33,372 nucleotides of DNA from a virus (lineage: Duplodnaviria; Caudoviricetes): positions 1-33,372 of IMG/VR virus record IMGVR_UViG_3300020045_014929. The stretch is one strand, 5' to 3'. The notes beneath the pieces were generated by a model, which searched no databases, was not told the DNA's origin, and saw only the letters and a list, made by a program, of their open reading frames with translations. The position numbers were made by a program, and so were the translations under genes. How positions within the stretch are numbered: the first letter of the stretch is position 1; the number at the start of each line of letters is the position of its first letter. Positions 12,489 to 33,372 of the stretch are shown in pieces.

Positions 12489-12688
12489 TGGAACCTTCAA
12501 CAGACAAACCAAAAACAAGAGAGGAGCTGATCCAGATACACAAAGATTTACACAATAGTTTGGATATCTTAATTGCCGATTTTATTTCCCAGACACGAAA
12601 CACTCTCACGGACACCTCATTGATGGAATTAATCGAATGGTCTCATCAGCAAACAATTAATCCAAGTTGTTATAAGTCCGAAGAATAA
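12488..12688 (+). CDS. Hypothetical protein
   Basis: TAATG overlaps at both ends. Confidence 0.7.
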   Translation: MEPSTDKPKTREELIQIHKDLHNSLDILIADFISQTRNTLTDTSLMELIEWSHQQTINPSCYKSEE

Positions 12689-13287
12689 TGGAAAATTTAT
12701 CCGATAAATACCAAGACCGATATCTCAAACACCAAGCGCGGAAGGCGGATATCCTTCGAAGTCATTATGGGACTAAAGAATTCAAAAAATACAATGAAGA
12801 AGAACAAAAAACTTTTATCGAAATCCTCAAAAGCCGAAGAAGTCAACGAGCTTTTAACCGAGATCCAGTCGAAATTGAAAGAATTCTTGAGCTCGCGGAA
12901 TACCGACCCTCGTCATGTGATCGTAGAAGTATCCAAATCAAAGTCATTACCGATAGGGATGACAAAGATTTACTTGGGGGGCTACTTGTTGGAGGGACGG
13001 GCTGGGTGCACCGCAGTGATAAAGTATTACTCTTTCTCGCATGGGAAGATGCCTACAAGTCGCCGGCGGAAAGGGAATGGATGAGATATATTGATGCTGG
13101 GGTTTTGGCGCAGACTCTTTACCTTGTGTGCGAATCACTCAATGTGGGGGCTTGCTACATAAATCCGAACATCCGTGAAAATAATAAAGAATTCTTCTAT
13201 AATAGATTTATCGATGAGGGCTATCAATATGTCGGAGCGATGGCCATAGGAAATTACGATCTAAAACATACAAGACCGAATGAATAA
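12688..13287 (+). CDS. Nitroreductase-family flavoprotein
   Basis: RRSQRAF, PSSCDRR, DAG..AQ.LYL....L.VG.C and terminal A.G motifs. Confidence 0.85.
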   Translation: MENLSDKYQDRYLKHQARKADILRSHYGTKEFKKYNEEEQKTFIEILKSRRSQRAFNRDPVEIERILELAEYRPSSCDRRSIQIKVITDRDDKDLLGGLLVGGTGWVHRSDKVLLFLAWEDAYKSPAEREWMRYIDAGVLAQTLYLVCESLNVGACYINPNIRENNKEFFYNRFIDEGYQYVGAMAIGNYDLKHTRPNE

Positions 13288-13558
13288 CGACAAACCAATT
13301 CCATCACCATTTGCAGGAGAACTTGGCAAGCCGAGCTCTGAGGATGAGGAATTTATAAAACAAGTTGAAGCAATATGCCAAGAACATGGCTATAAAAATT
13401 TCTTCATTTCTTTCTCTCCGGCCGACCCAACTCATAGGACTGCCCGACAATGGAAGAGTTTTAGCAATGGCTTGTCGGAAGATATGGTACAATGTTTAGA
13501 AATAATCGTAAAAGGGATGCGTGCCACTTACGATGAAATAAAAAAGAAATTACTATGA
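13280..13558 (+). CDS. Hypothetical protein
   Basis: Operon packing. Confidence 0.7.
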   Translation: MNNDKPIPSPFAGELGKPSSEDEEFIKQVEAICQEHGYKNFFISFSPADPTHRTARQWKSFSNGLSEDMVQCLEIIVKGMRATYDEIKKKLL

Positions 13559-13689
13559 TCCCAGAAAAAGTGCAAAAAGGAAGAGAGTTATTTTTTCAGG
13601 AAAAAGAAATGAATGAGGAGGAACTCTCCTGCTTCATGGCTTTTCTTCAATACTGTTATCAGGCAGGAGATTTTAATTACAACAATTAA
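13555..13689 (+). CDS. Small hypothetical protein (44 aa, not in ORF track)
   Basis: MIPEKVQKGRELFF...YNN*; ATGA overlap. Confidence 0.55.
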   Translation: MIPEKVQKGRELFFQEKEMNEEELSCFMAFLQYCYQAGDFNYNN

Positions 13690-13691
13690 TT

Positions 13692-14573
13692 ATGAAACTA
13701 TCAATTTATAGTATTGTCAAGAATGAAGAGATAGAGATTGAAGATATGATCAAATCTGCAATGGGAGCAGATGAACACATCATTGTTGATACCGGAAGCA
13801 CTGATAAAACTATTGAATTAATAAAAAAGTACCCTCATGTCAAGCTCTACACTGATTACACTTGGAACGATGATTTCTCCGAAGCAAAGAACCACGCCGC
13901 GGCCAAATGCACGAACGAATGGGTATGCTCTTTAGATGCTGACTGTCGGTTAGATAAAGATTTTATAAAAGAAGCCCACGAAATGATTCAAGACACAAAG
14001 CACGATGCTTTGTTCGTGGATCTGATGTCGCTTCAATATCAGGGGGCGAACCATCGCCGAGCAAAAATTTACAGAAATAATGGAAAGATTTTTTATAAAG
14101 GAATGGCTCACGAAGATTTGAATGTTCTCGGACAAGTGCATGAGTCTGGAGTAATTCCGAAAATTTGGTATGGATATTCGATCAATCACATGAAAGATCC
14201 GGACCGATACATCCGAATTATGGCCAAGCAAGTTGATGCTGAGCCGACTGTGCCGAGACATCTTTTTTACTTAGCTCAATCGTATTTTTTCAAAAAGGAT
14301 TATGTCCCTGCGATTGCTATCTTTCGCGATTACTTGGATATGTCAAAATATCCAAAAGAAAGAGTGGAAGCATATCTCTACATTGCTCAAGCTCACTGGT
14401 TTATGAAGCAAGGAGGCAAAGCACGAGAAGCATGCACTCAGGCGATCTTAATGAATCCCGATCACAGAGGGGCATTGAGATTTATGGCAACAATTCACAA
14501 TGAGCCGTGGAAACACAAATGGCAGAAGATCGCCGACAGAGCTACAAATGAAGATGCAATGTTTCGAAGATAA
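13692..14573 (+). CDS. Glycosyltransferase family 2 with C-terminal TPR repeats
   Basis: IVKNEE, IVDTGSTD.T, W.DDFS.A.N, LDAD (DxD), HE, then FYLAQSY/AYLYIAQ TPR-like helices. Confidence 0.9.
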   Translation: MKLSIYSIVKNEEIEIEDMIKSAMGADEHIIVDTGSTDKTIELIKKYPHVKLYTDYTWNDDFSEAKNHAAAKCTNEWVCSLDADCRLDKDFIKEAHEMIQDTKHDALFVDLMSLQYQGANHRRAKIYRNNGKIFYKGMAHEDLNVLGQVHESGVIPKIWYGYSINHMKDPDRYIRIMAKQVDAEPTVPRHLFYLAQSYFFKKDYVPAIAIFRDYLDMSKYPKERVEAYLYIAQAHWFMKQGGKAREACTQAILMNPDHRGALRFMATIHNEPWKHKWQKIADRATNEDAMFRR

Positions 14574-19554: not shown

Positions 19555-20637
19555 TTAGAATTGGTTGTTTAGACCAGTGGAAAGCAGTTTGTTTCCCTTA
19601 TTTTTTAATAAATTCGCGGCTCGAACCGATGCCGCTGCTTTGTTGGCATTCACTTTTGTTCCCTGAAAGTCGTAATTGTTCGCGTTGTATACAGTGGAGA
19701 GAGGAGCAGGTCCGATTCCATTTCTTGCAGTATTTGCATTAAAAGTATTTCCACCAAGCTGATAGTATTCTGAAAGTTTAGGAGATTTCACCGCATCTTT
19801 TCCGTAAGCATATTGAACATTTGTCAAAACACTTCCAATCCCAGCCCCGGTTCTTGCTCGGTTTAGTTCTTGATTCCTCGCATAGTCATCTGCGAGTCTT
19901 TTCTCTTTTTCGAATCTTCCACCAGAGAATAACACCCCCTTGTCGGCTGCGTTTTGATCTAAATTATTTTTATCATTTTGGAAATTTTCTTTTGAAGTTG
20001 CCAAGAAATCTCCGTAATTTCGTTTCTTTTCAGCGAGATCAGCTTCATAGCCAGCCATGTCGTAAGATTTTTCAGCATTGAACCCCGGAGCCAAAGCATC
20101 CTTTGCAGTTCTCATCGCTTCTTCTTGCTGAAGTCCTGAGAATGGTTTCCCTTGTGAATCTAAAAGTGAACTGAAGTCGCCAGTTTCGGCAGCATAAGTA
20201 AGAGTATCAGGATCATTATGAGCAAAAGCAGGATGAGCCGCCGCGTGGGCGTTGTAAAACTTATCCAATTCTTCTTGGGTTTTTGGTATGAATTTTTCAT
20301 TGAGTTGGCCGGTTTCGGCGTTAAACATAAAAGAAGGATCGTCCGGTGCCTTCCCGGTTCCCGGAGCGCCTGATGGGTCAGGCGAACCCCCAATAACCAA
20401 TGCTTTTTGTTGTGTAGCTGGACCCCAAACACCATCGCCTTTCAAGTCGTTGTCAAGCTGGTATTGCCTGACTGCCGCTTCCGTCACAGGGCCATAACCT
20501 CCATCGGCTTTCACATCTGAATAACCAAGAGAGATGAGATATTGTTGCAATGCTTTCACTTGATCTCCGAAAGACCCTCGGGAGAGGGTGGAGTTGATAG
20601 CATTAAGTCCTGTGAGTTTTGTGTTTTTTGGGTCCAT
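19555..20637 (-). CDS. Virion (ejection-module) protein with N-terminal peptidoglycan-binding domain
   Basis: LSRGSFGDQVKALQQYL...DGGYGPVTEAAVRQYQ...L.GDGVWGPAT (PG_binding_1), then A..KGVLFSG helical region. Confidence 0.75.
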   Translation of the reverse strand: MDPKNTKLTGLNAINSTLSRGSFGDQVKALQQYLISLGYSDVKADGGYGPVTEAAVRQYQLDNDLKGDGVWGPATQQKALVIGGSPDPSGAPGTGKAPDDPSFMFNAETGQLNEKFIPKTQEELDKFYNAHAAAHPAFAHNDPDTLTYAAETGDFSSLLDSQGKPFSGLQQEEAMRTAKDALAPGFNAEKSYDMAGYEADLAEKKRNYGDFLATSKENFQNDKNNLDQNAADKGVLFSGGRFEKEKRLADDYARNQELNRARTGAGIGSVLTNVQYAYGKDAVKSPKLSEYYQLGGNTFNANTARNGIGPAPLSTVYNANNYDFQGTKVNANKAAASVRAANLLKNKGNKLLSTGLNNQF

Positions 20638-20685: not shown

Positions 20686-21366
20686 TCATAAAACATCGAC
20701 TGTGCAATCAAAATCACTGTTCCGTGGATTCCCCACAAGATCAAAAGTGTTGACCACAAAGCTGTTTGCTCCCTTGTCTGTGATGTAGGCCAGCGTATAT
20801 ACAGCAAGAGATCCGTTGGTAAATGGCATCACTGAGATATCGTAATTTACAGTGTGAAGATTGTGAGTGATACGATACTCTCCTGTGCCAAGTGTTGATA
20901 TCGTCCAAAGAACCTCGCTCTGACTTTGGAGAACATTCACCCCACTATTGATCAAACTTATTGATTTTGTAGCTTGCATTGAGTAGCCAAGATATGCCCC
21001 ACCAAGACCAGTCAACAAAAACCCAATTCGAAGGCCACCTGCAAGATCCTCGCGATAAGCAATAAGATAGTCAAGTCCTTTTGCTCGAGTAAAATCTAAG
21101 CTACCAAGATTGAAACTACTTAATACAGAATCTAAACTTTGCCCTATTTCGATTCGGTCAGCTTGGTCTGAAGATTTTATTAAGCAAGCAGTGATGACAG
21201 TTCCAGTGATAACCTCACGAGCATCTTTTTTATTTTTATCAGCAGTCTCTCGGGCTCCCGCTTCCTTCGTGCTGTAAACTTGAGAGGACATATACGCAGG
21301 AGTTTCATCAGGAGTGAAATTTCCTTTGTATAAATTCCTATTCATTTTTAGTAATTGAAGTTCCAT
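20686..21366 (-). CDS. Tail-associated structural protein
   Basis: C-terminal GTGEYRITHNL..NY beta domain typical of tail fibre/tip proteins; follows the nozzle module. Confidence 0.6.
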   Translation of the reverse strand: MELQLLKMNRNLYKGNFTPDETPAYMSSQVYSTKEAGARETADKNKKDAREVITGTVITACLIKSSDQADRIEIGQSLDSVLSSFNLGSLDFTRAKGLDYLIAYREDLAGGLRIGFLLTGLGGAYLGYSMQATKSISLINSGVNVLQSQSEVLWTISTLGTGEYRITHNLHTVNYDISVMPFTNGSLAVYTLAYITDKGANSFVVNTFDLVGNPRNSDFDCTVDVL

Positions 21367-24077
21367 TAGTTTTGATCGAAGCCCTTATCCTGCACTGATA
21401 ATATTTCAATACTATGAATCACAATCGGATCACCGGAAGAATATCCTGCAATGCGAATTCTGCCCGCATTGTAGTCCATCGTCTGAGCATTTGGGAAAAG
21501 AGAGTTGGAATTTTGATCAATAGTTCCTAGCGGATCTCCCCAAACATTTGGAGGAGATTTTTGGTCTTGGAAATATACTCTCGCTCCTCCAGCATTTTCA
21601 GTGTAGACATTGAAGCCACTGATGCTTTCTACTTTTGCATAAAGATCCGTGTAGCTCCTCCAGCGATCAATGAAATCAAAGTAAATTGGTCTGTCGTAAT
21701 CAAGGAAACCAGTATCAAGAGTCCCCACTCGAGCTTGGTCGCTTTGAGTAGTGAACATCACATTGTCTCCGTAGCCAGTGCCGGCGATCGTCATCGCGTA
21801 TGCTCGAACATAATACAAAGTCCCCGGAGTCAAGGCAGTAAGTGCTCCGCTATACACTCCGATGGTTCCGGCCACTATCACTTTATCGTCCGCAGTAGTA
21901 GGGCTTGGATTAATGCTCCAAACGAAACCTCTTTCAGTAATAGTTTCTCCGCCATCATCAACCACTTCTCCGTGAGCAGTTGCAGTAGTTTTTGCTATAT
22001 CTGTGACAGGATTTGTGATGACAGTAGCGAGCGGGGCAAAAGAGAAAATCCATCCAGAATTATTTCCGCCGTTCAAGTTTCCATTTGTTCCAAATGCTTC
22101 AAAGGTTGCCCCTCCGACAGCTTGAGAATATGAAATAGTTGAATTGAAAGAACTGACAGTGCCACTTGCAACAGTGATGGTCCAGTTTCCTGTGCCAGTT
22201 CCGCGAATAATTCTTTGAGCTCCAGCGGCCAAAGTGAAAGTGGTTGCTGTTTGGTTGCTTCCATCTTCAAATTCCACAGTAAGCCCATTATCTATTTTCA
22301 AATCATCGTAGGTGTTCGAGCCATTGATTGTGATGGTTCCAGCTCCAGCATTGGCGATCCAGACATCATTGTAGGTCAGACTTCCACCAGTGAAAATTTT
22401 AGCACTCGCAGAATTATTCGTGAGTTTTATGTTCGCAGTATCTTTTGTGAAAGTGATGTTGCTGTTAGAAAGCTCCCACACTGTCGCGATACTAGTGAGA
22501 GTCCAGAGACCAGATCCCATGATTAATTCACGGACATTGCTATTGTTTGAATGGAAGGAGCCGACAGTAATTGTTTTATCATTCGCATCAAAAGTTCCTT
22601 CTTCCAGAGTGACAGCTCCCGTCACAGAGAGAGCATCTTCGATTGTGAGGACTCCGCCTGAAGAATCATAAGTAAATCCTCCAGCAATAGTTTTACCATT
22701 TGAAGTTAGAGAAACGGCCGTGCCAGAAAGAACATCCACGCCAGTGCTACTCCAAGTCATTCCTGATCCCAGAGTGACAACATCTCCAGCAATAGCGATG
22801 CTACCAGTGCCCGCAAGTGTTCCAGTAAAGCCAGTAAAAACTAAATCTTTACAAGCAAGGGAACCAGTTTTGGTGACAGTGACCGCGCCAGAAGCCGCGT
22901 CAAAAGTCACATCATCAAGAGCAGTAGGGACCGGAGCACCTCCGTCTCCCCCAGAACTTAGAGCCCATTTGTCACCGGCGTCTGAATCCCAAGCGTCTGT
23001 TCCCCCTACCCAAAATCTTCCAGCAGGGATTGCTGTAAAAATCCATCCAGTTGTGTTTCCTCCGTCAGTGGAATTTCCTCCAGCGTAAAAGGTTGCACCT
23101 CCAGAGGCATGCACATTCGTGATGCTTAAGTAGTCACAGCCGACAATTCCGCCCGGCACTGAAATAGTTGCCGCGCTTCCACCAGAGTCCTTGTTCATTG
23201 TGATCAAATGACCGGCATTTCCAGAAACATGGAAACCAGAAGTAGAACTTTGAGCGGCGAAAGTGTAGGTATTGGAATTTTTCCACTGAATTGTGTGAGT
23301 GCCAGTTCCGTCATCGATATAATTATTGCATTGGAATCTTGTAGTGTGAGTTATTTTTCCAGTAGAAGAAGCTCTTGAGAACCAAATATCGTAAAAAGTA
23401 TCATCATTCCAAGTGACGACAATATCCGTGTTGCTGGTGTCGATGAATTTAATCGTAGAGGTTCCTTCCGTGATTGTTGGAGGGGAAGCGCCGTCAATAA
23501 AGAATACTGCAACCCCACCAGAACCCACAGTTCCAGTGATGGTCCAAAGCCCGCTTCCCATATTGAGGGCGGTAGTTTTTCCAAGAGATCTTCCGATTGC
23601 AAAAGATAATGTTGTGACATCAAAATTATTTGCCACAAAAGTTCCATCCGTCACAACCAATCCTTGATCCGTTATGAGGTCGTCTTGCAAAGTGAATGTG
23701 GCGGCCGCGCCATTAAGTGTGACGATAGGCAGAGTGAGGCCACCCGAAGTTATTGAGGCCGTGGCAATAATATTTAGCTGAGAATCCGTGTGAGAAAGAA
23801 CCATCCCCGGAACAAATAAAACATCACCCGACACATTGAGCGTATTAGCACTATTTCCCATCGCGAATGTTCCAGTAAATCCTGTGCAGTTCAAGCTCTT
23901 AGCAGAGCGAGAGCCAGAGAGAGTGATAGTTCCGGAGCCAGAGCTTGCATCAAAGAAAACATCATCAGAAGAAGTAGGCACAGCTTGTCCGCCCGCACCT
24001 CCAGCAGTCAAAGCCCACTTTGATCCAGCGGTTCCATTCCATGTATCAGTTCCTCCCACCCAATGTCTTTGTGCCAT
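21366..24077 (-). CDS. Large virion adhesin: two tandem beta-solenoid-like domains, FN3-like domain, C-terminal nozzle-like segment
   Basis: Repeat 1 starts AQRHWVGG (aa 2), repeat 2 starts GRFWVGG (aa 353), both end G.N..GWIF; FN3-like T.LTPGTLYYVRAYA...G..YG...FTT; final ~126 aa differ in composition. Confidence 0.8.
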   Translation of the reverse strand: MAQRHWVGGTDTWNGTAGSKWALTAGGAGGQAVPTSSDDVFFDASSGSGTITLSGSRSAKSLNCTGFTGTFAMGNSANTLNVSGDVLFVPGMVLSHTDSQLNIIATASITSGGLTLPIVTLNGAAATFTLQDDLITDQGLVVTDGTFVANNFDVTTLSFAIGRSLGKTTALNMGSGLWTITGTVGSGGVAVFFIDGASPPTITEGTSTIKFIDTSNTDIVVTWNDDTFYDIWFSRASSTGKITHTTRFQCNNYIDDGTGTHTIQWKNSNTYTFAAQSSTSGFHVSGNAGHLITMNKDSGGSAATISVPGGIVGCDYLSITNVHASGGATFYAGGNSTDGGNTTGWIFTAIPAGRFWVGGTDAWDSDAGDKWALSSGGDGGAPVPTALDDVTFDAASGAVTVTKTGSLACKDLVFTGFTGTLAGTGSIAIAGDVVTLGSGMTWSSTGVDVLSGTAVSLTSNGKTIAGGFTYDSSGGVLTIEDALSVTGAVTLEEGTFDANDKTITVGSFHSNNSNVRELIMGSGLWTLTSIATVWELSNSNITFTKDTANIKLTNNSASAKIFTGGSLTYNDVWIANAGAGTITINGSNTYDDLKIDNGLTVEFEDGSNQTATTFTLAAGAQRIIRGTGTGNWTITVASGTVSSFNSTISYSQAVGGATFEAFGTNGNLNGGNNSGWIFSFAPLATVITNPVTDIAKTTATAHGEVVDDGGETITERGFVWSINPSPTTADDKVIVAGTIGVYSGALTALTPGTLYYVRAYAMTIAGTGYGDNVMFTTQSDQARVGTLDTGFLDYDRPIYFDFIDRWRSYTDLYAKVESISGFNVYTENAGGARVYFQDQKSPPNVWGDPLGTIDQNSNSLFPNAQTMDYNAGRIRIAGYSSGDPIVIHSIEILSVQDKGFDQN

Positions 24078-28488: not shown

Positions 28489-29547
28489 TTATAATGAATT
28501 CAATTTCCCTCTTGTGGCGGGTCCGACAACCCCGTCACTCACCAAATTATTGGCTGTTTGGAAATTCATAACTCCGTTGCGTGTGACATTCCCGAAGTTT
28601 TCAGTGGTCCCCACATTGGAAGGAAAGAATCCTTTTGCCTTCAAACGCTCTTGAAGAATCTTAACCTCTGGATCCACCATCCCAAATTTCAGAGTCTTTG
28701 TCAGTTGAGGTATTGCAGGAGGGAGTTCTCCTTCTTCGTAATTAAAACTCATTGGATATTTGATTAAGAAATTTCTTGCATTGAAAAATTCTCGTGTCAC
28801 ATACCTCACCGCCCTACCTCCGAAATGAGCAGAATCCTCAATTTTCAAAACTTGCTCACCATTGACAATAGAAATATCTGTGGCAAGCCCAAAATCTACA
28901 CTCGCAACACTATGCCTCGATGATCTTGGGTCATACGGACCAGCAAGATCATCAATTATTTTCGGAACTTCCAACCCCCATTCTCGAGAAGTGAAATAAA
29001 ACCAAGTCATCACTCCTTTTCCTGTTGTTTGAATAGTGGAAGCTACGCGATCAAAATCTCCATTAGGAATTGTGATATGTTTCCCCAACTTAAATCCTTT
29101 CGCCACCTCCTTCGCAAAAAGAGAAATTTCAAATGAGTCAGCTTCTCGAATCTGATTACTTTTGCACACGGCTTCAAGAGTAATACCTCTAGTCTGCCAT
29201 ATTTCAAAAGCATCATTCCCCACCATCCCGCCATCTGGTTTATTTACTCGGTAATCGTAAATAGAGTTGGGGCTAAAAAGAATAAATTCTTTTGTCTTAA
29301 GCCAAAAATTAATCAGAGCTAGTTTTGCAATAGTGAAAGCCACGCATTTGAAGGTAAAAAATTGATTCAATTCTGGGAAAGCCCGAAACTCATCTTTCTT
29401 TTTCTTCAACCAAACTACTTCATTAGCAGATGCCACAAATTCAGTTTGAGAAATATCTTTGGACTTCTCCTCTTCTGTGCGAAGATCGGCCGCTCCCTGA
29501 TACCCTTCATAAAATTTGTCTATTCCATTGTCTAAATTTTCATCCAT
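28489..29547 (-). CDS. Endolysin: papain-like cysteine peptidase with C-terminal peptidoglycan-binding domain
   Basis: NQ...KCVAF (Gln/Cys), SP..IY, RHSVA (His), IEDS; C-terminal LKFG...VK.LQ..L...FG..T...V..FQ...L..DGVVGPATR. Confidence 0.8.
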   Translation of the reverse strand: MDENLDNGIDKFYEGYQGAADLRTEEEKSKDISQTEFVASANEVVWLKKKKDEFRAFPELNQFFTFKCVAFTIAKLALINFWLKTKEFILFSPNSIYDYRVNKPDGGMVGNDAFEIWQTRGITLEAVCKSNQIREADSFEISLFAKEVAKGFKLGKHITIPNGDFDRVASTIQTTGKGVMTWFYFTSREWGLEVPKIIDDLAGPYDPRSSRHSVASVDFGLATDISIVNGEQVLKIEDSAHFGGRAVRYVTREFFNARNFLIKYPMSFNYEEGELPPAIPQLTKTLKFGMVDPEVKILQERLKAKGFFPSNVGTTENFGNVTRNGVMNFQTANNLVSDGVVGPATRGKLNSL

Positions 29548-29834: not shown

Positions 29835-31394
29835 TCATGTTAACTCATTAATATCTTTGACTGCGGTTCCAATCGAAGCCCCTCTAAGAATATTGATACC
29901 AGTTTTTATTGCAAGCCCATTAATATCCGTAATGCTCGCCAACTGGAATATCCATCCCGATCCACCTCCTGTTGAATGCGCCCCTGCGTAGAAAGTGGCA
30001 CCTCCAGTAGTGGAACAACTGGTGACAGTTAGATAATCACACGACACGATTCCACTCGCGATAGAGAGAGTCGGCGCCGTTCCTCCGGCATCTTTCGTCA
30101 AAGTGACTGGATGACCATTATTCCCTGCTACATGAAAACCAGTGGTTGATGTTTGAGCGGCAAAGGTATAAGTATTGGAGTTTTTCCACTGAATTGTATG
30201 GGTGCCAGTACCATCATCAAGATAATTATTACAAAGAAATCTAGTCGTGTGAATTACTTTTCCAGTGCTTGTCCCTCGGGCGTACCAGATATTGTAAAAA
30301 GTATCATCATTCCAAGTGCAAGTGATATCTGTGTTGCTCGTATCTGTAAATTTAATTGTAGAGGTAGATTCATTAATTGTTGGAGGAGAAGCGCCGTCAA
30401 TAAAGAATACTGCAACACCTCCAGAACCCGCAGTTCCAGTAATCGTCCAAGTTCCCGTCCCAAAATTCACTACTACAGTTTTTCCAAGAGACCTTCCTGC
30501 TGCGAAATTTGGAGTCGTTATGTTGAAATTGTTTGCAGTGAATGTTCCATCCGTCACAGTTATTCCTTGATCGGAAACAAAGGTGCTTTGAATTGTCAGA
30601 GTAATTCCCGATCCCGCACAAGTGACAATAGGTAAAGTTTTCCCTCCTGAAGTCAGAGAAGCAGTAGCAATAAAGTTCAGCTGAGAATCTGTGTGAGAAA
30701 GAGTCATGCCTGAGACGAATACCACACTTCCCGACATGTTGAGAGTGTTTGCATTATTCCCCATATCAAATGTTCCAGCAAAACTGGTACAAGTGAGAGT
30801 TTTGGCACTTCTTGAACCGGACAAAGTTATTGTATTTGTTCCAGAATTCCCATCAAAAAATACATCGTCTGAAGCTGTTGGCACGGCTGAGCCAGCTCCT
30901 CCTCCAGAAGTCGTTGACCATTTTCCGGTAGCTGTAGCATTCCAAGTACCTCCTGCGGTCAGAACCCAGAAGCGGTTGGCATTGTGGACTAGAATTTCAT
31001 TGATGTAGTAAGTGTGGTCTCCAGAAACTTCCAAGCGGTGAAAATAATAATCACCTTTTATTTTTTTGATGCTAGTGATTCTCTCACGAGTACCATCTTT
31101 TCGGTCAAGCATATCGCCCTTTTTTACTTCAAAAGCGTGGATAGCATTCCCATCAATCATTAAGCTCTGGTCTTTGTAAACGAAAAGGTCTTTATTAATG
31201 AGATAAAAATAATCGTTCTTTTTTACATTTTTTTCCACCTTATTCACCACATTAATTTTTCCACCTTCACCAATGATTCGATTGCCCTTTTTTAATTTCT
31301 CTATGCTGATAATACCCTTGTCAGTGATAACAAGTTGTGGTATCGCAAAGATTCGAGCTTTCTCCTCTTTAGTTGTGAAAAAATTTTTGAACAT
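29835..31394 (-). CDS. Virion adhesin with N-terminal Hint (intein-like) autoprocessing domain
   Basis: Likely start ATG at 31394 (MFKNFF); Hint blocks V.T..G...IE.L..G, VKKGD.L, RLEVSGDHTYYINEILVHN; then a domain closely paralogous to the N-terminus of 21366-24077. Confidence 0.88.
   Translation of the reverse strand: MFKNFFTTKEEKARIFAIPQLVITDKGIISIEKLKKGNRIIGEGGKINVVNKVEKNVKKNDYFYLINKDLFVYKDQSLMIDGNAIHAFEVKKGDMLDRKDGTRERITSIKKIKGDYYFHRLEVSGDHTYYINEILVHNANRFWVLTAGGTWNATATGKWSTTSGGGAGSAVPTASDDVFFDGNSGTNTITLSGSRSAKTLTCTSFAGTFDMGNNANTLNMSGSVVFVSGMTLSHTDSQLNFIATASLTSGGKTLPIVTCAGSGITLTIQSTFVSDQGITVTDGTFTANNFNITTPNFAAGRSLGKTVVVNFGTGTWTITGTAGSGGVAVFFIDGASPPTINESTSTIKFTDTSNTDITCTWNDDTFYNIWYARGTSTGKVIHTTRFLCNNYLDDGTGTHTIQWKNSNTYTFAAQTSTTGFHVAGNNGHPVTLTKDAGGTAPTLSIASGIVSCDYLTVTSCSTTGGATFYAGAHSTGGGSGWIFQLASITDINGLAIKTGINILRGASIGTAVKDINELT
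30981..31352 (-). other. Hint domain without homing endonuclease, predicted C-terminal cleavage only
   Basis: Ends ...LVHN followed by Ala; position 1 is Ile not Cys/Ser; block B reads YKDQ instead of TxxH. Confidence 0.85.
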
Positions 31395-31396
31395 AA

Positions 31397-33372
<1,976 letters not shown>

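Follow-up and report, generated by a model that had tools for sequence, protein, structure and literature searches.

A Hint domain ahead of a phage beta-helix as a candidate cap cleaving only at its C-terminal end

What is a Hint domain doing in front of a predicted phage beta-helix? The question arises at a gene for a 519-residue protein in the IMG/VR virus record IMGVR_UViG_3300020045_014929, which was taken whole as the window (33,372 bases, linear, estimated to be 75% complete). An earlier note on this gene, made from the sequence alone, proposed a Hint domain that can no longer splice, still cuts on its C-terminal side and so uncovers the N-terminus of an adhesin. The domain has the Hint fold and belongs to a single clade that has lost the residues of N-side chemistry and kept its terminal His-Asn pair; it is optional, and it sits in exact register with the start of relatives that lack it. 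It is fairly probable that this Hint is an optional but kept accessory pro-domain which cleaves only at its C-terminus, in a role that we infer.

The Hint domain and its active site

The features of the gene are as follows; counts refer to 112 family members and 87 canonical Hints, defined in the next section. Models were scored by the predicted local distance difference test (pLDDT) and the predicted template modelling score (pTM).

29835-31394, minus strand: whole gene, with leader, Hint cap, predicted beta-helix and short C-terminal tail (519 aa; full-length model pLDDT 91.8, pTM 0.87)
31353-31394, minus strand: 14-residue hydrophilic leader with a predicted helix at residues 9-16, retained by the closest subclade; no signal peptide
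30981-31352, minus strand: Hint domain, residues 15-138 (Pfam, PDB match, Atlas, Foldseek, VIA)
31350-31352, minus strand: Ile15, Hint position 1 (Cys in 85 of 87 canonical Hints)
31167-31178, minus strand: block B, YKDQ in place of TxxH (Gln76 in 110 of 112 family members)
31137-31139, minus strand: His86, a family-specific conserved residue (109 of 112 in the family, 5 of 87 canonical)
31035-31037, minus strand: Arg120, block F position 4 or F4 (Arg or Lys in 98 of 112; Asp or Asn in canonical Hints)
31014-31016, minus strand: His127, the block F His (kept in 107 of 112)
30978-30986, minus strand: His137-Asn138 followed by Ala139, the predicted cleavage junction, placed by structure and family alignments
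29943-30980, minus strand: passenger (residues 139 to about 484), a predicted beta-helix that is frequent among tailed phages (model, Atlas)
29835-29942, minus strand: C-terminal tail, low confidence in the model, varying among homologs

A Pfam search with residues 1-138, which the earlier note had suggested, matched Intein_splicing (E 2.2e-5, 24.7 bits against a gathering cut-off of 35.8) and PT-HINT (PF07591; E 7.1e-5, 23.5 bits against 27.7), both below the cut-off; the PF07591 gathering score was passed by 3 of 25 clade members scanned. The NCBIfam and PHROGs searches assigned no family to the 519-residue protein or its Hint, and the PDB sequence match was the gp41-1 intein (E 2e-4). The AlphaFold model of the Hint region (pLDDT 86.7) found gp41-1 again in Foldseek (E 1.5e-8) and a PT-HINT protein in the Atlas (template modelling score, TM, 0.84), and VIA aligned 117-123 residues to BIL2, gp41-1 and the bacterial intein-like domain (BIL) of C. 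thermocellum with Z 15.7-16.0 and a root-mean-square deviation of 1.8-1.9 Å. The models thus confirmed the predicted fold of residues 15-138 as a Hint domain, a horseshoe beta-fold, and the structure settles the weak sequence evidence in favour of what the note had read. In the VIA alignment intein residue 4 falls on model residue 18 and the terminal Asn on residue 138, so that Ile15 is position 1 and the Hint is 124 aa long.

The residues that the earlier note had named were all as it described them: Ile at position 1, YKDQ (residues 73-76) in the TxxH column, His127 as the block F His, His137-Asn138 as block G, and Ala at +1. Its list of N-side changes was right on Ile15 and YKDQ and overlooked Arg120 at F4, which aligns to D107 of gp41-1. 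With no Cys1, no block B Thr or His and no +1 nucleophile, the domain should form no thioester, should not splice and should make no N-side cut. The intein classes were considered in turn: class 1 (Cys or Ser at position 1; Cys, Ser or Thr at +1) is ruled out by Ile15 and Ala139, the query does not fit class 2 as in KlbA (Ala1, Cys+1, Thr at B7, His at B10, Asp at F4), and class 3 (Cys at F4, Cys+1) is ruled out by Arg120, F4 Cys being found in 0 of 112 family members.

Among Atlas clusters the passenger comes closest to unnamed viral proteins (TM up to 0.80), followed by TPS, autotransporter and lyase beta-helices (TM 0.55-0.60), and the Foldseek PDB rows for the full-length model held Hint matches only, with no passenger match. 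The adhesin role given to the passenger by the earlier note is a putative one, to be judged from the beta-helix model and the structural-gene context, and the C-terminal tail may be a virion anchor. The ATG lies 2 nt past the stop of the upstream gene and homologs use the same Met; an alternative GTG start at 31436 was rejected, as it would overlap the neighbouring gene on that side and homologs take the ATG.

A single clade of Hints before one beta-helix

Word-based searches returned 5, 10 and 19 proteins. A phmmer search of 1.84 billion representatives, with a query that contained His-Asn (HN) and 16 passenger residues, gave 436 matches, of which the best 150 were used and 105 of these were in the family of the query Hint. 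Six redundant rows were dropped (P0006-P0010, near-identical cluster members, and P0013, a short call of the gene of locus L006) and three locus translations added, and the resulting 164 proteins gave 212 Hint matches. A passenger profile, rather than the HN motif, sorted these into 112 Hints linked to the beta-helix and 100 others; of the latter, 90 had sufficient length for alignment, and once the 3 with the family signature were set apart (the lone Hint P0111 and two whose passengers are cut off), 87 were left as the canonical set. The query Hint is a member of one clade of at least 112 Hints, each directly preceding the same predicted beta-helix. The split from the 87 canonical Hints had a support of 99 with the four diagnostic columns and the termini removed (FastTree, 124 columns), and the mean pairwise Hint identity in the family is 33% (1500 sampled pairs).

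In the alignment Cys1 is present in 2 of 112 family members against 85 of 87 canonical Hints, the block B Thr (B7) in 1 against all 87, the block B His (B10) in none (Gln in 110) against all 87, and Asp or Asn at F4 in 2 (Arg in 70, Lys in 28) against 81. The C-side behaves differently: the block F His is kept in 107 of 112 family members and 66 of 87 canonical Hints, and the penultimate His and terminal Asn in 112 of 112 and 85 of 87, so that His137 and Asn138 are the sole invariant columns of the family. Position +1 is Ala in 108 of 112 and Cys, Ser or Thr in 1. Further residues are conserved in this clade specifically, namely Asn48, Gln76, Ser77 and His86, plus Arg or Lys at 120. The earlier note had expected a selective loss on the N-side with HN kept, and the homolog survey, in which HN shows no decay, agrees with it.

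This conservation was also looked at with less reliance on HN itself. Among the phmmer matches, 66 of the 82 at 56 bits or more are family members, about 10 bits above the end of the best 150 of 436, and by our estimate of that margin HN-less members should have shown. Seven viral loci came up with a DNA pattern for block F that leaves out HN, and each of the 7 runs on to HN-A-S-R. Thirteen loci found with an HN pattern were excluded as a test of HN conservation; in these the gene lies among virion-like genes of varied phages, as read from open reading frame sequences with no family scan, and the reading frames were intact in 13 of 13 viral loci read. It is next to impossible that the family is a dead intein remnant without activity or selection: the Pfam scores below threshold and P0111, the lone clade member with no passenger and an altered end, would fit one, but the invariant HN, the intact frames and the confident fold contradict it.

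At position 1 roughly half of the family rows are without an aligned residue. By a rough, rule-based sorting, 44 of 112 begin within block A and so lack the first strand entirely, another 21 open with a hydrophobic, signal-like stretch, 44 have a short hydrophilic leader or some other beginning, and 3 carry a long extension. In five loci (L008, L009, L010, L012 and L018) the start inside block A lies at most 4 nt past the upstream stop, which means that it was not mis-called. P0035 and P0036 keep Cys-Phe at Hint positions 1-2 with the block B His already Gln, and these relics confirm the register of position 1. Some family members look like secreted bacterial proteins with TPS, peptidoglycan-binding, FG-GAP and Calx-beta domains.

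The first viral scans, with close-homolog patterns, gave 2 weak loci without a confirmed Hint, or nothing, and of the genome-contig scans the first was empty and a later one gave one family locus and one canonical Hint. In GenBank phages tblastn with the capped N-terminus gave no match, and with a second family member two records, P19250A_0021, which is cap-less, and DC31.

P0111 (136 aa) has the block B Gln, a replaced His86 and the end HDN, and is possibly a decayed or stand-alone member. Six other proteins (P0025, P0050, P0079, P0097, P0143 and P0162) carry 3-5 canonical Hints in tandem with few-residue joins, some behind a signal-like N-terminus, and at L018:11097-12314 a separate Hint ending HN-T lies within a terminase-like gene and is probably an ordinary intein.

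Register and optional presence of the cap

21366-24077, minus strand: Hint-less paralog, 903 aa, two beta-helix repeats (at residues 2 and 352), the first starting M-A-Q-R-H-W-V; closest passenger relative, 70%

The predicted product ANRFWV aligns with residue 2 of this paralog (70% identity over 349 aa), a register which the earlier note had pointed out and which was extended here to about 90 cap-less phage genes. The beta-helix start motif alone was scanned in 8 of the 64 parts of IMG/VR and gave 127 loci, or 119 distinct matches: in 84 a Met lies close upstream, 8 use an alternative start codon, 26 are internal and 1 carries a Hint cap. Thus 92 of 119 beta-helix starts are gene starts, and the cap is present at about 1% of the sampled viral beta-helix starts. 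In 82 of the 84 Met-started cap-less genes the Met lies exactly three codons before the Arg, which is the position of the Hint Asn, and under a looser de-duplication the residue after the start is Ala in 91 of 95 cap-less cases. Met is removed before Ala at protein N-termini. The terminal Asn of the cap occupies the start-Met position of its cap-less relatives, and ANRFWV corresponds to their Met-removed start. The linker varies at 1 of the 101 Hint-passenger junctions listed (P0016).

Ser is found at +2 in 94 of 112 capped genes against 9 of 95 cap-less starts, which may reflect a preference of the Hint or lineage; a role of this Ser as second nucleophile was set aside, as the query has Asn there and the bias may be lineage. 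The C-terminal region of the Hint-less paralog has a weak NCBIfam match at 685-801.

The cap comes and goes on the passenger tree. With 113 capped and 54 cap-less passengers it needs 14 changes, at least 4 of them forced, against a mean of 46 when shuffled, and an approximately unbiased test rejects a single capped clade (p 3e-53), a value biased by the choice of 33 rows after seeing the tree. On this tree the cap-less paralogs in the window and in L009 branch from within capped genes, and for the window's paralog this suggests cap loss or gene conversion. At L009:7827-11508, as in the window, a capped gene is paired with a cap-less paralog, which at L009 follows it directly. In the cultured phage P19250A the cap-less member lies inside the tail module. 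Between close homologs the Hint is 86% identical where the passenger is 45%, and in another comparison 76% against 45%, which points to possible selection on the cap or swapping at the junction.

Predicted cleavage, its alternatives and the genome around the gene

The Hint would probably cut itself off after Asn138 and leave a predicted virion beta-helix starting at Ala139, with His127 and His137 assisting the cyclisation of Asn138 as in known intein chemistry. Asn cyclisation is step 3 of splicing; the block F His and the penultimate His promote it, and it can run alone, as passages of PMC4031507 describe. According to parts of PMC12245125, C1A gp41-1 cleaves C-terminally without its native exteins and D107G does so tenfold faster, and excerpts of PMC9033041 give faster C-cleavage with added pH dependence for Mtu RecA D422G. 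The family has lost what these engineered mutants remove, which favours C-cleavage. Until it folds and cuts, the cap would keep the beta-helix tip covered or hold it back, and Asn48, Gln76, Ser77, His86 and Arg/Lys120 would set the rate or the trigger. Where the N-terminal part is long or signal-like, or the protein looks like a secreted bacterial one, cleavage at this point would lead to shedding of the beta-helix. Gain, loss or exchange of the cap would take place at the conserved A-x-R-[YF]-W junction. A pH-triggered switch, which the earlier note offered, is conceivable, and the benefit of the cap to the phage is the weakest step.

Several points weigh against this account, in which C-terminal cleavage is a likely event predicted from the residues and from intein chemistry and the cap's masking or timing role is a further conjecture. 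The substitution D107K inhibited C-cleavage in gp41-1, the closest solved intein, in the parts of PMC12245125 that point to a supplementary figure, and F4 is Arg in 70 and Lys in 28 of 112 members. Pro at +1, poorly tolerated by gp41-1 according to the same parts of PMC12245125, is found in 2 of 112, and the block F His is missing in 5 of 112. Of 119 sampled viral beta-helix starts, 118 are cap-less and 26 are internal, so that a free N-terminus is not needed, which tells against the masking or timing role. The HN-independent check was small, with 7 loci, all on contigs already found, and the family was drawn from only the best 150 of 436 matches to a query holding HN and 16 passenger residues.

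An unlikely alternative is that the Hint is a permanent N-terminal module which does not cleave and serves assembly, anchoring or ligand binding, its active site rebuilt for binding and its His-Asn kept for the same end. The new conserved Gln76, His86, Asn48 and Arg/Lys120 would suit this, as would the two members with Pro at +1, the pTM of the full-length model, which is consistent with a fixed domain arrangement, and the better conservation of the Hint than of the passenger in the closest homologs. Anchoring domains of fibres are usually more conserved. The block on cleavage by an F4 Lys in gp41-1 (parts of PMC12245125) points the same way. However, Asn cyclisation depends on three residues that rank among the most conserved, while none of the N-side catalytic residues is left, and the terminal Asn lies exactly at the cap-less Met position with a linker that varies at a single junction.

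It is quite unlikely that the Hint is a hitchhiker, lodged between Met1 and Ala2, that cuts itself out without benefit to the phage and keeps His-Asn for its own removal. C-cleavage alone would make such a Hint harmless, so that N-side residues could decay, and the exact Met register, the low prevalence, the patchy distribution with its forced changes, the nested cap-less paralogs of the window and L009, and the two members that still have Cys-Phe are what one would then see. However, a 124-aa domain without a homing endonuclease has persisted in over 100 clusters that share less than 50% identity although its precise loss evidently occurs, new invariant residues took over its N-side sites, which were not randomised, and it is 86% identical where the passenger fell to 45%.

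The earlier note had compared the cap to an N-terminal counterpart of the S74 self-cleaving tail chaperones. An obligatory intramolecular chaperone of this S74/ICA kind, needed for folding or trimerisation of the beta-helix, is very unlikely. The Hint does always directly precede the same beta-helix, and phage beta-helical spikes carry self-cleaving chaperones (passages of PMC8326128), but the same genome holds a 70%-identical paralog without the cap, 92 of 93 sampled first-repeat viral genes and the cultured-phage gene P19250A_0021 are cap-less, and the beta-helix domain is also found as internal repeats. Taking the accessory cap, the hitchhiker and the chaperone together, Asn-dependent cleavage of some kind would be quite likely.

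The likeness to S74/ICA domains, that of a self-removing domain on a phage beta-helical protein, ends there: those domains are C-terminal, use a Ser-Lys dyad and are needed for folding of a triple beta-helix (passages of PMC8326128), whereas the family is an N-terminal cap with another fold and chemistry which most relatives lack. An S74/ICA identity for the query itself is ruled out by its N-terminal Hint fold.

The nearest sequence neighbours of the family are of the A-type BIL or PT-HINT type. With these (for example the C. thermocellum BIL, PDB 2lwy, Z 15.7) it shares the Hint fold, the terminal His-Asn and the lack of a +1 nucleophile, and A-type BILs, too, stand before C-terminal cargo thought to be released by autoproteolysis (parts of PMC3482391). 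Unlike them, the family lacks Cys1, the block B Thr and His and often the first strand, has Arg or Lys at F4, and is mostly N-terminal and tied to one passenger. The earlier note had likened the domain to A-type BILs in its chemistry, a comparison that is weakened, since those form an N-terminal thioester and can splice somewhat, in the passages of PMC4031507 that treat them, and the family does not keep this step. Judged by its sequence, the family descends from A-type BIL/PT-HINT-like domains and is not an A-type BIL proper.

The closest functional analogues are engineered C-cleaving inteins (gp41-1 C1A/D107G, Mtu RecA ΔI-CM D422G and Ssp DnaB in pTWIN), which, in the parts of the sources that describe them, also lack a position-1 nucleophile and the F4 Asp, keep His-Asn and serve as an N-terminal tag on cargo; they differ in being artificial, in keeping the block B His and in having Gly at F4, where the natural family has Arg or Lys. 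The Hedgehog Hint and B-type BILs are likewise Hints domesticated for one-sided autoprocessing, but in the sections of the sources that treat them they keep the N-side Cys1 chemistry and have no intein-type block G; the family is their mirror image.

In the portions of reviews that cover them, natural one-sided Hints (Hedgehog, B-type BIL) cut on the N-side and pure C-side cutters are engineered mutants. The family looks like a natural C-side cutter, and its more than 100 diverged sequences would show which residues C-cleavage can spare. Searches of full-text literature, partly background searches and with little subscription literature, found no such family described; Amitai 2003 and Dassa 2004 could mention an N-side-dead A-type subgroup. 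If active, these Hints would mature virion proteins in uncultured phages and supply small candidates, mostly Cys-free, for self-cleaving tags; if inactive, they would be a Hint fold turned into a binding module, which is also unusual. A more far-reaching picture is possible, though doubtful: Cys-free, traceless caps that only C-cleave and stand in for the initiator Met of a beta-helix widespread in phages and bacteria, with a rebuilt active site (Gln76, His86, Arg/Lys120) that delays the cut until a cue from assembly, pH or host contact; they would serve as a switch for arming on virion fibres and for shedding on secreted surface proteins, forming a one-sided Hint class that mirrors Hedgehog.

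31397-33232, minus strand: collagen-like gene upstream of the capped gene, matching tail-fibre PHROGs (context; PHROGs search)

Lysis-type genes come after the capped gene in the window. Two peptidoglycan-binding-domain proteins are encoded on the minus strand (19555-20637 and 28489-29547), with catalytic parts that have no Pfam match; one is among probable internal virion proteins and the other adjoins a holin-like gene. On the plus strand, 12688-14573 holds genes for a nitroreductase and a GT2-TPR glycosyltransferase, and a similar-looking glycosyltransferase directly follows the capped gene of L015.
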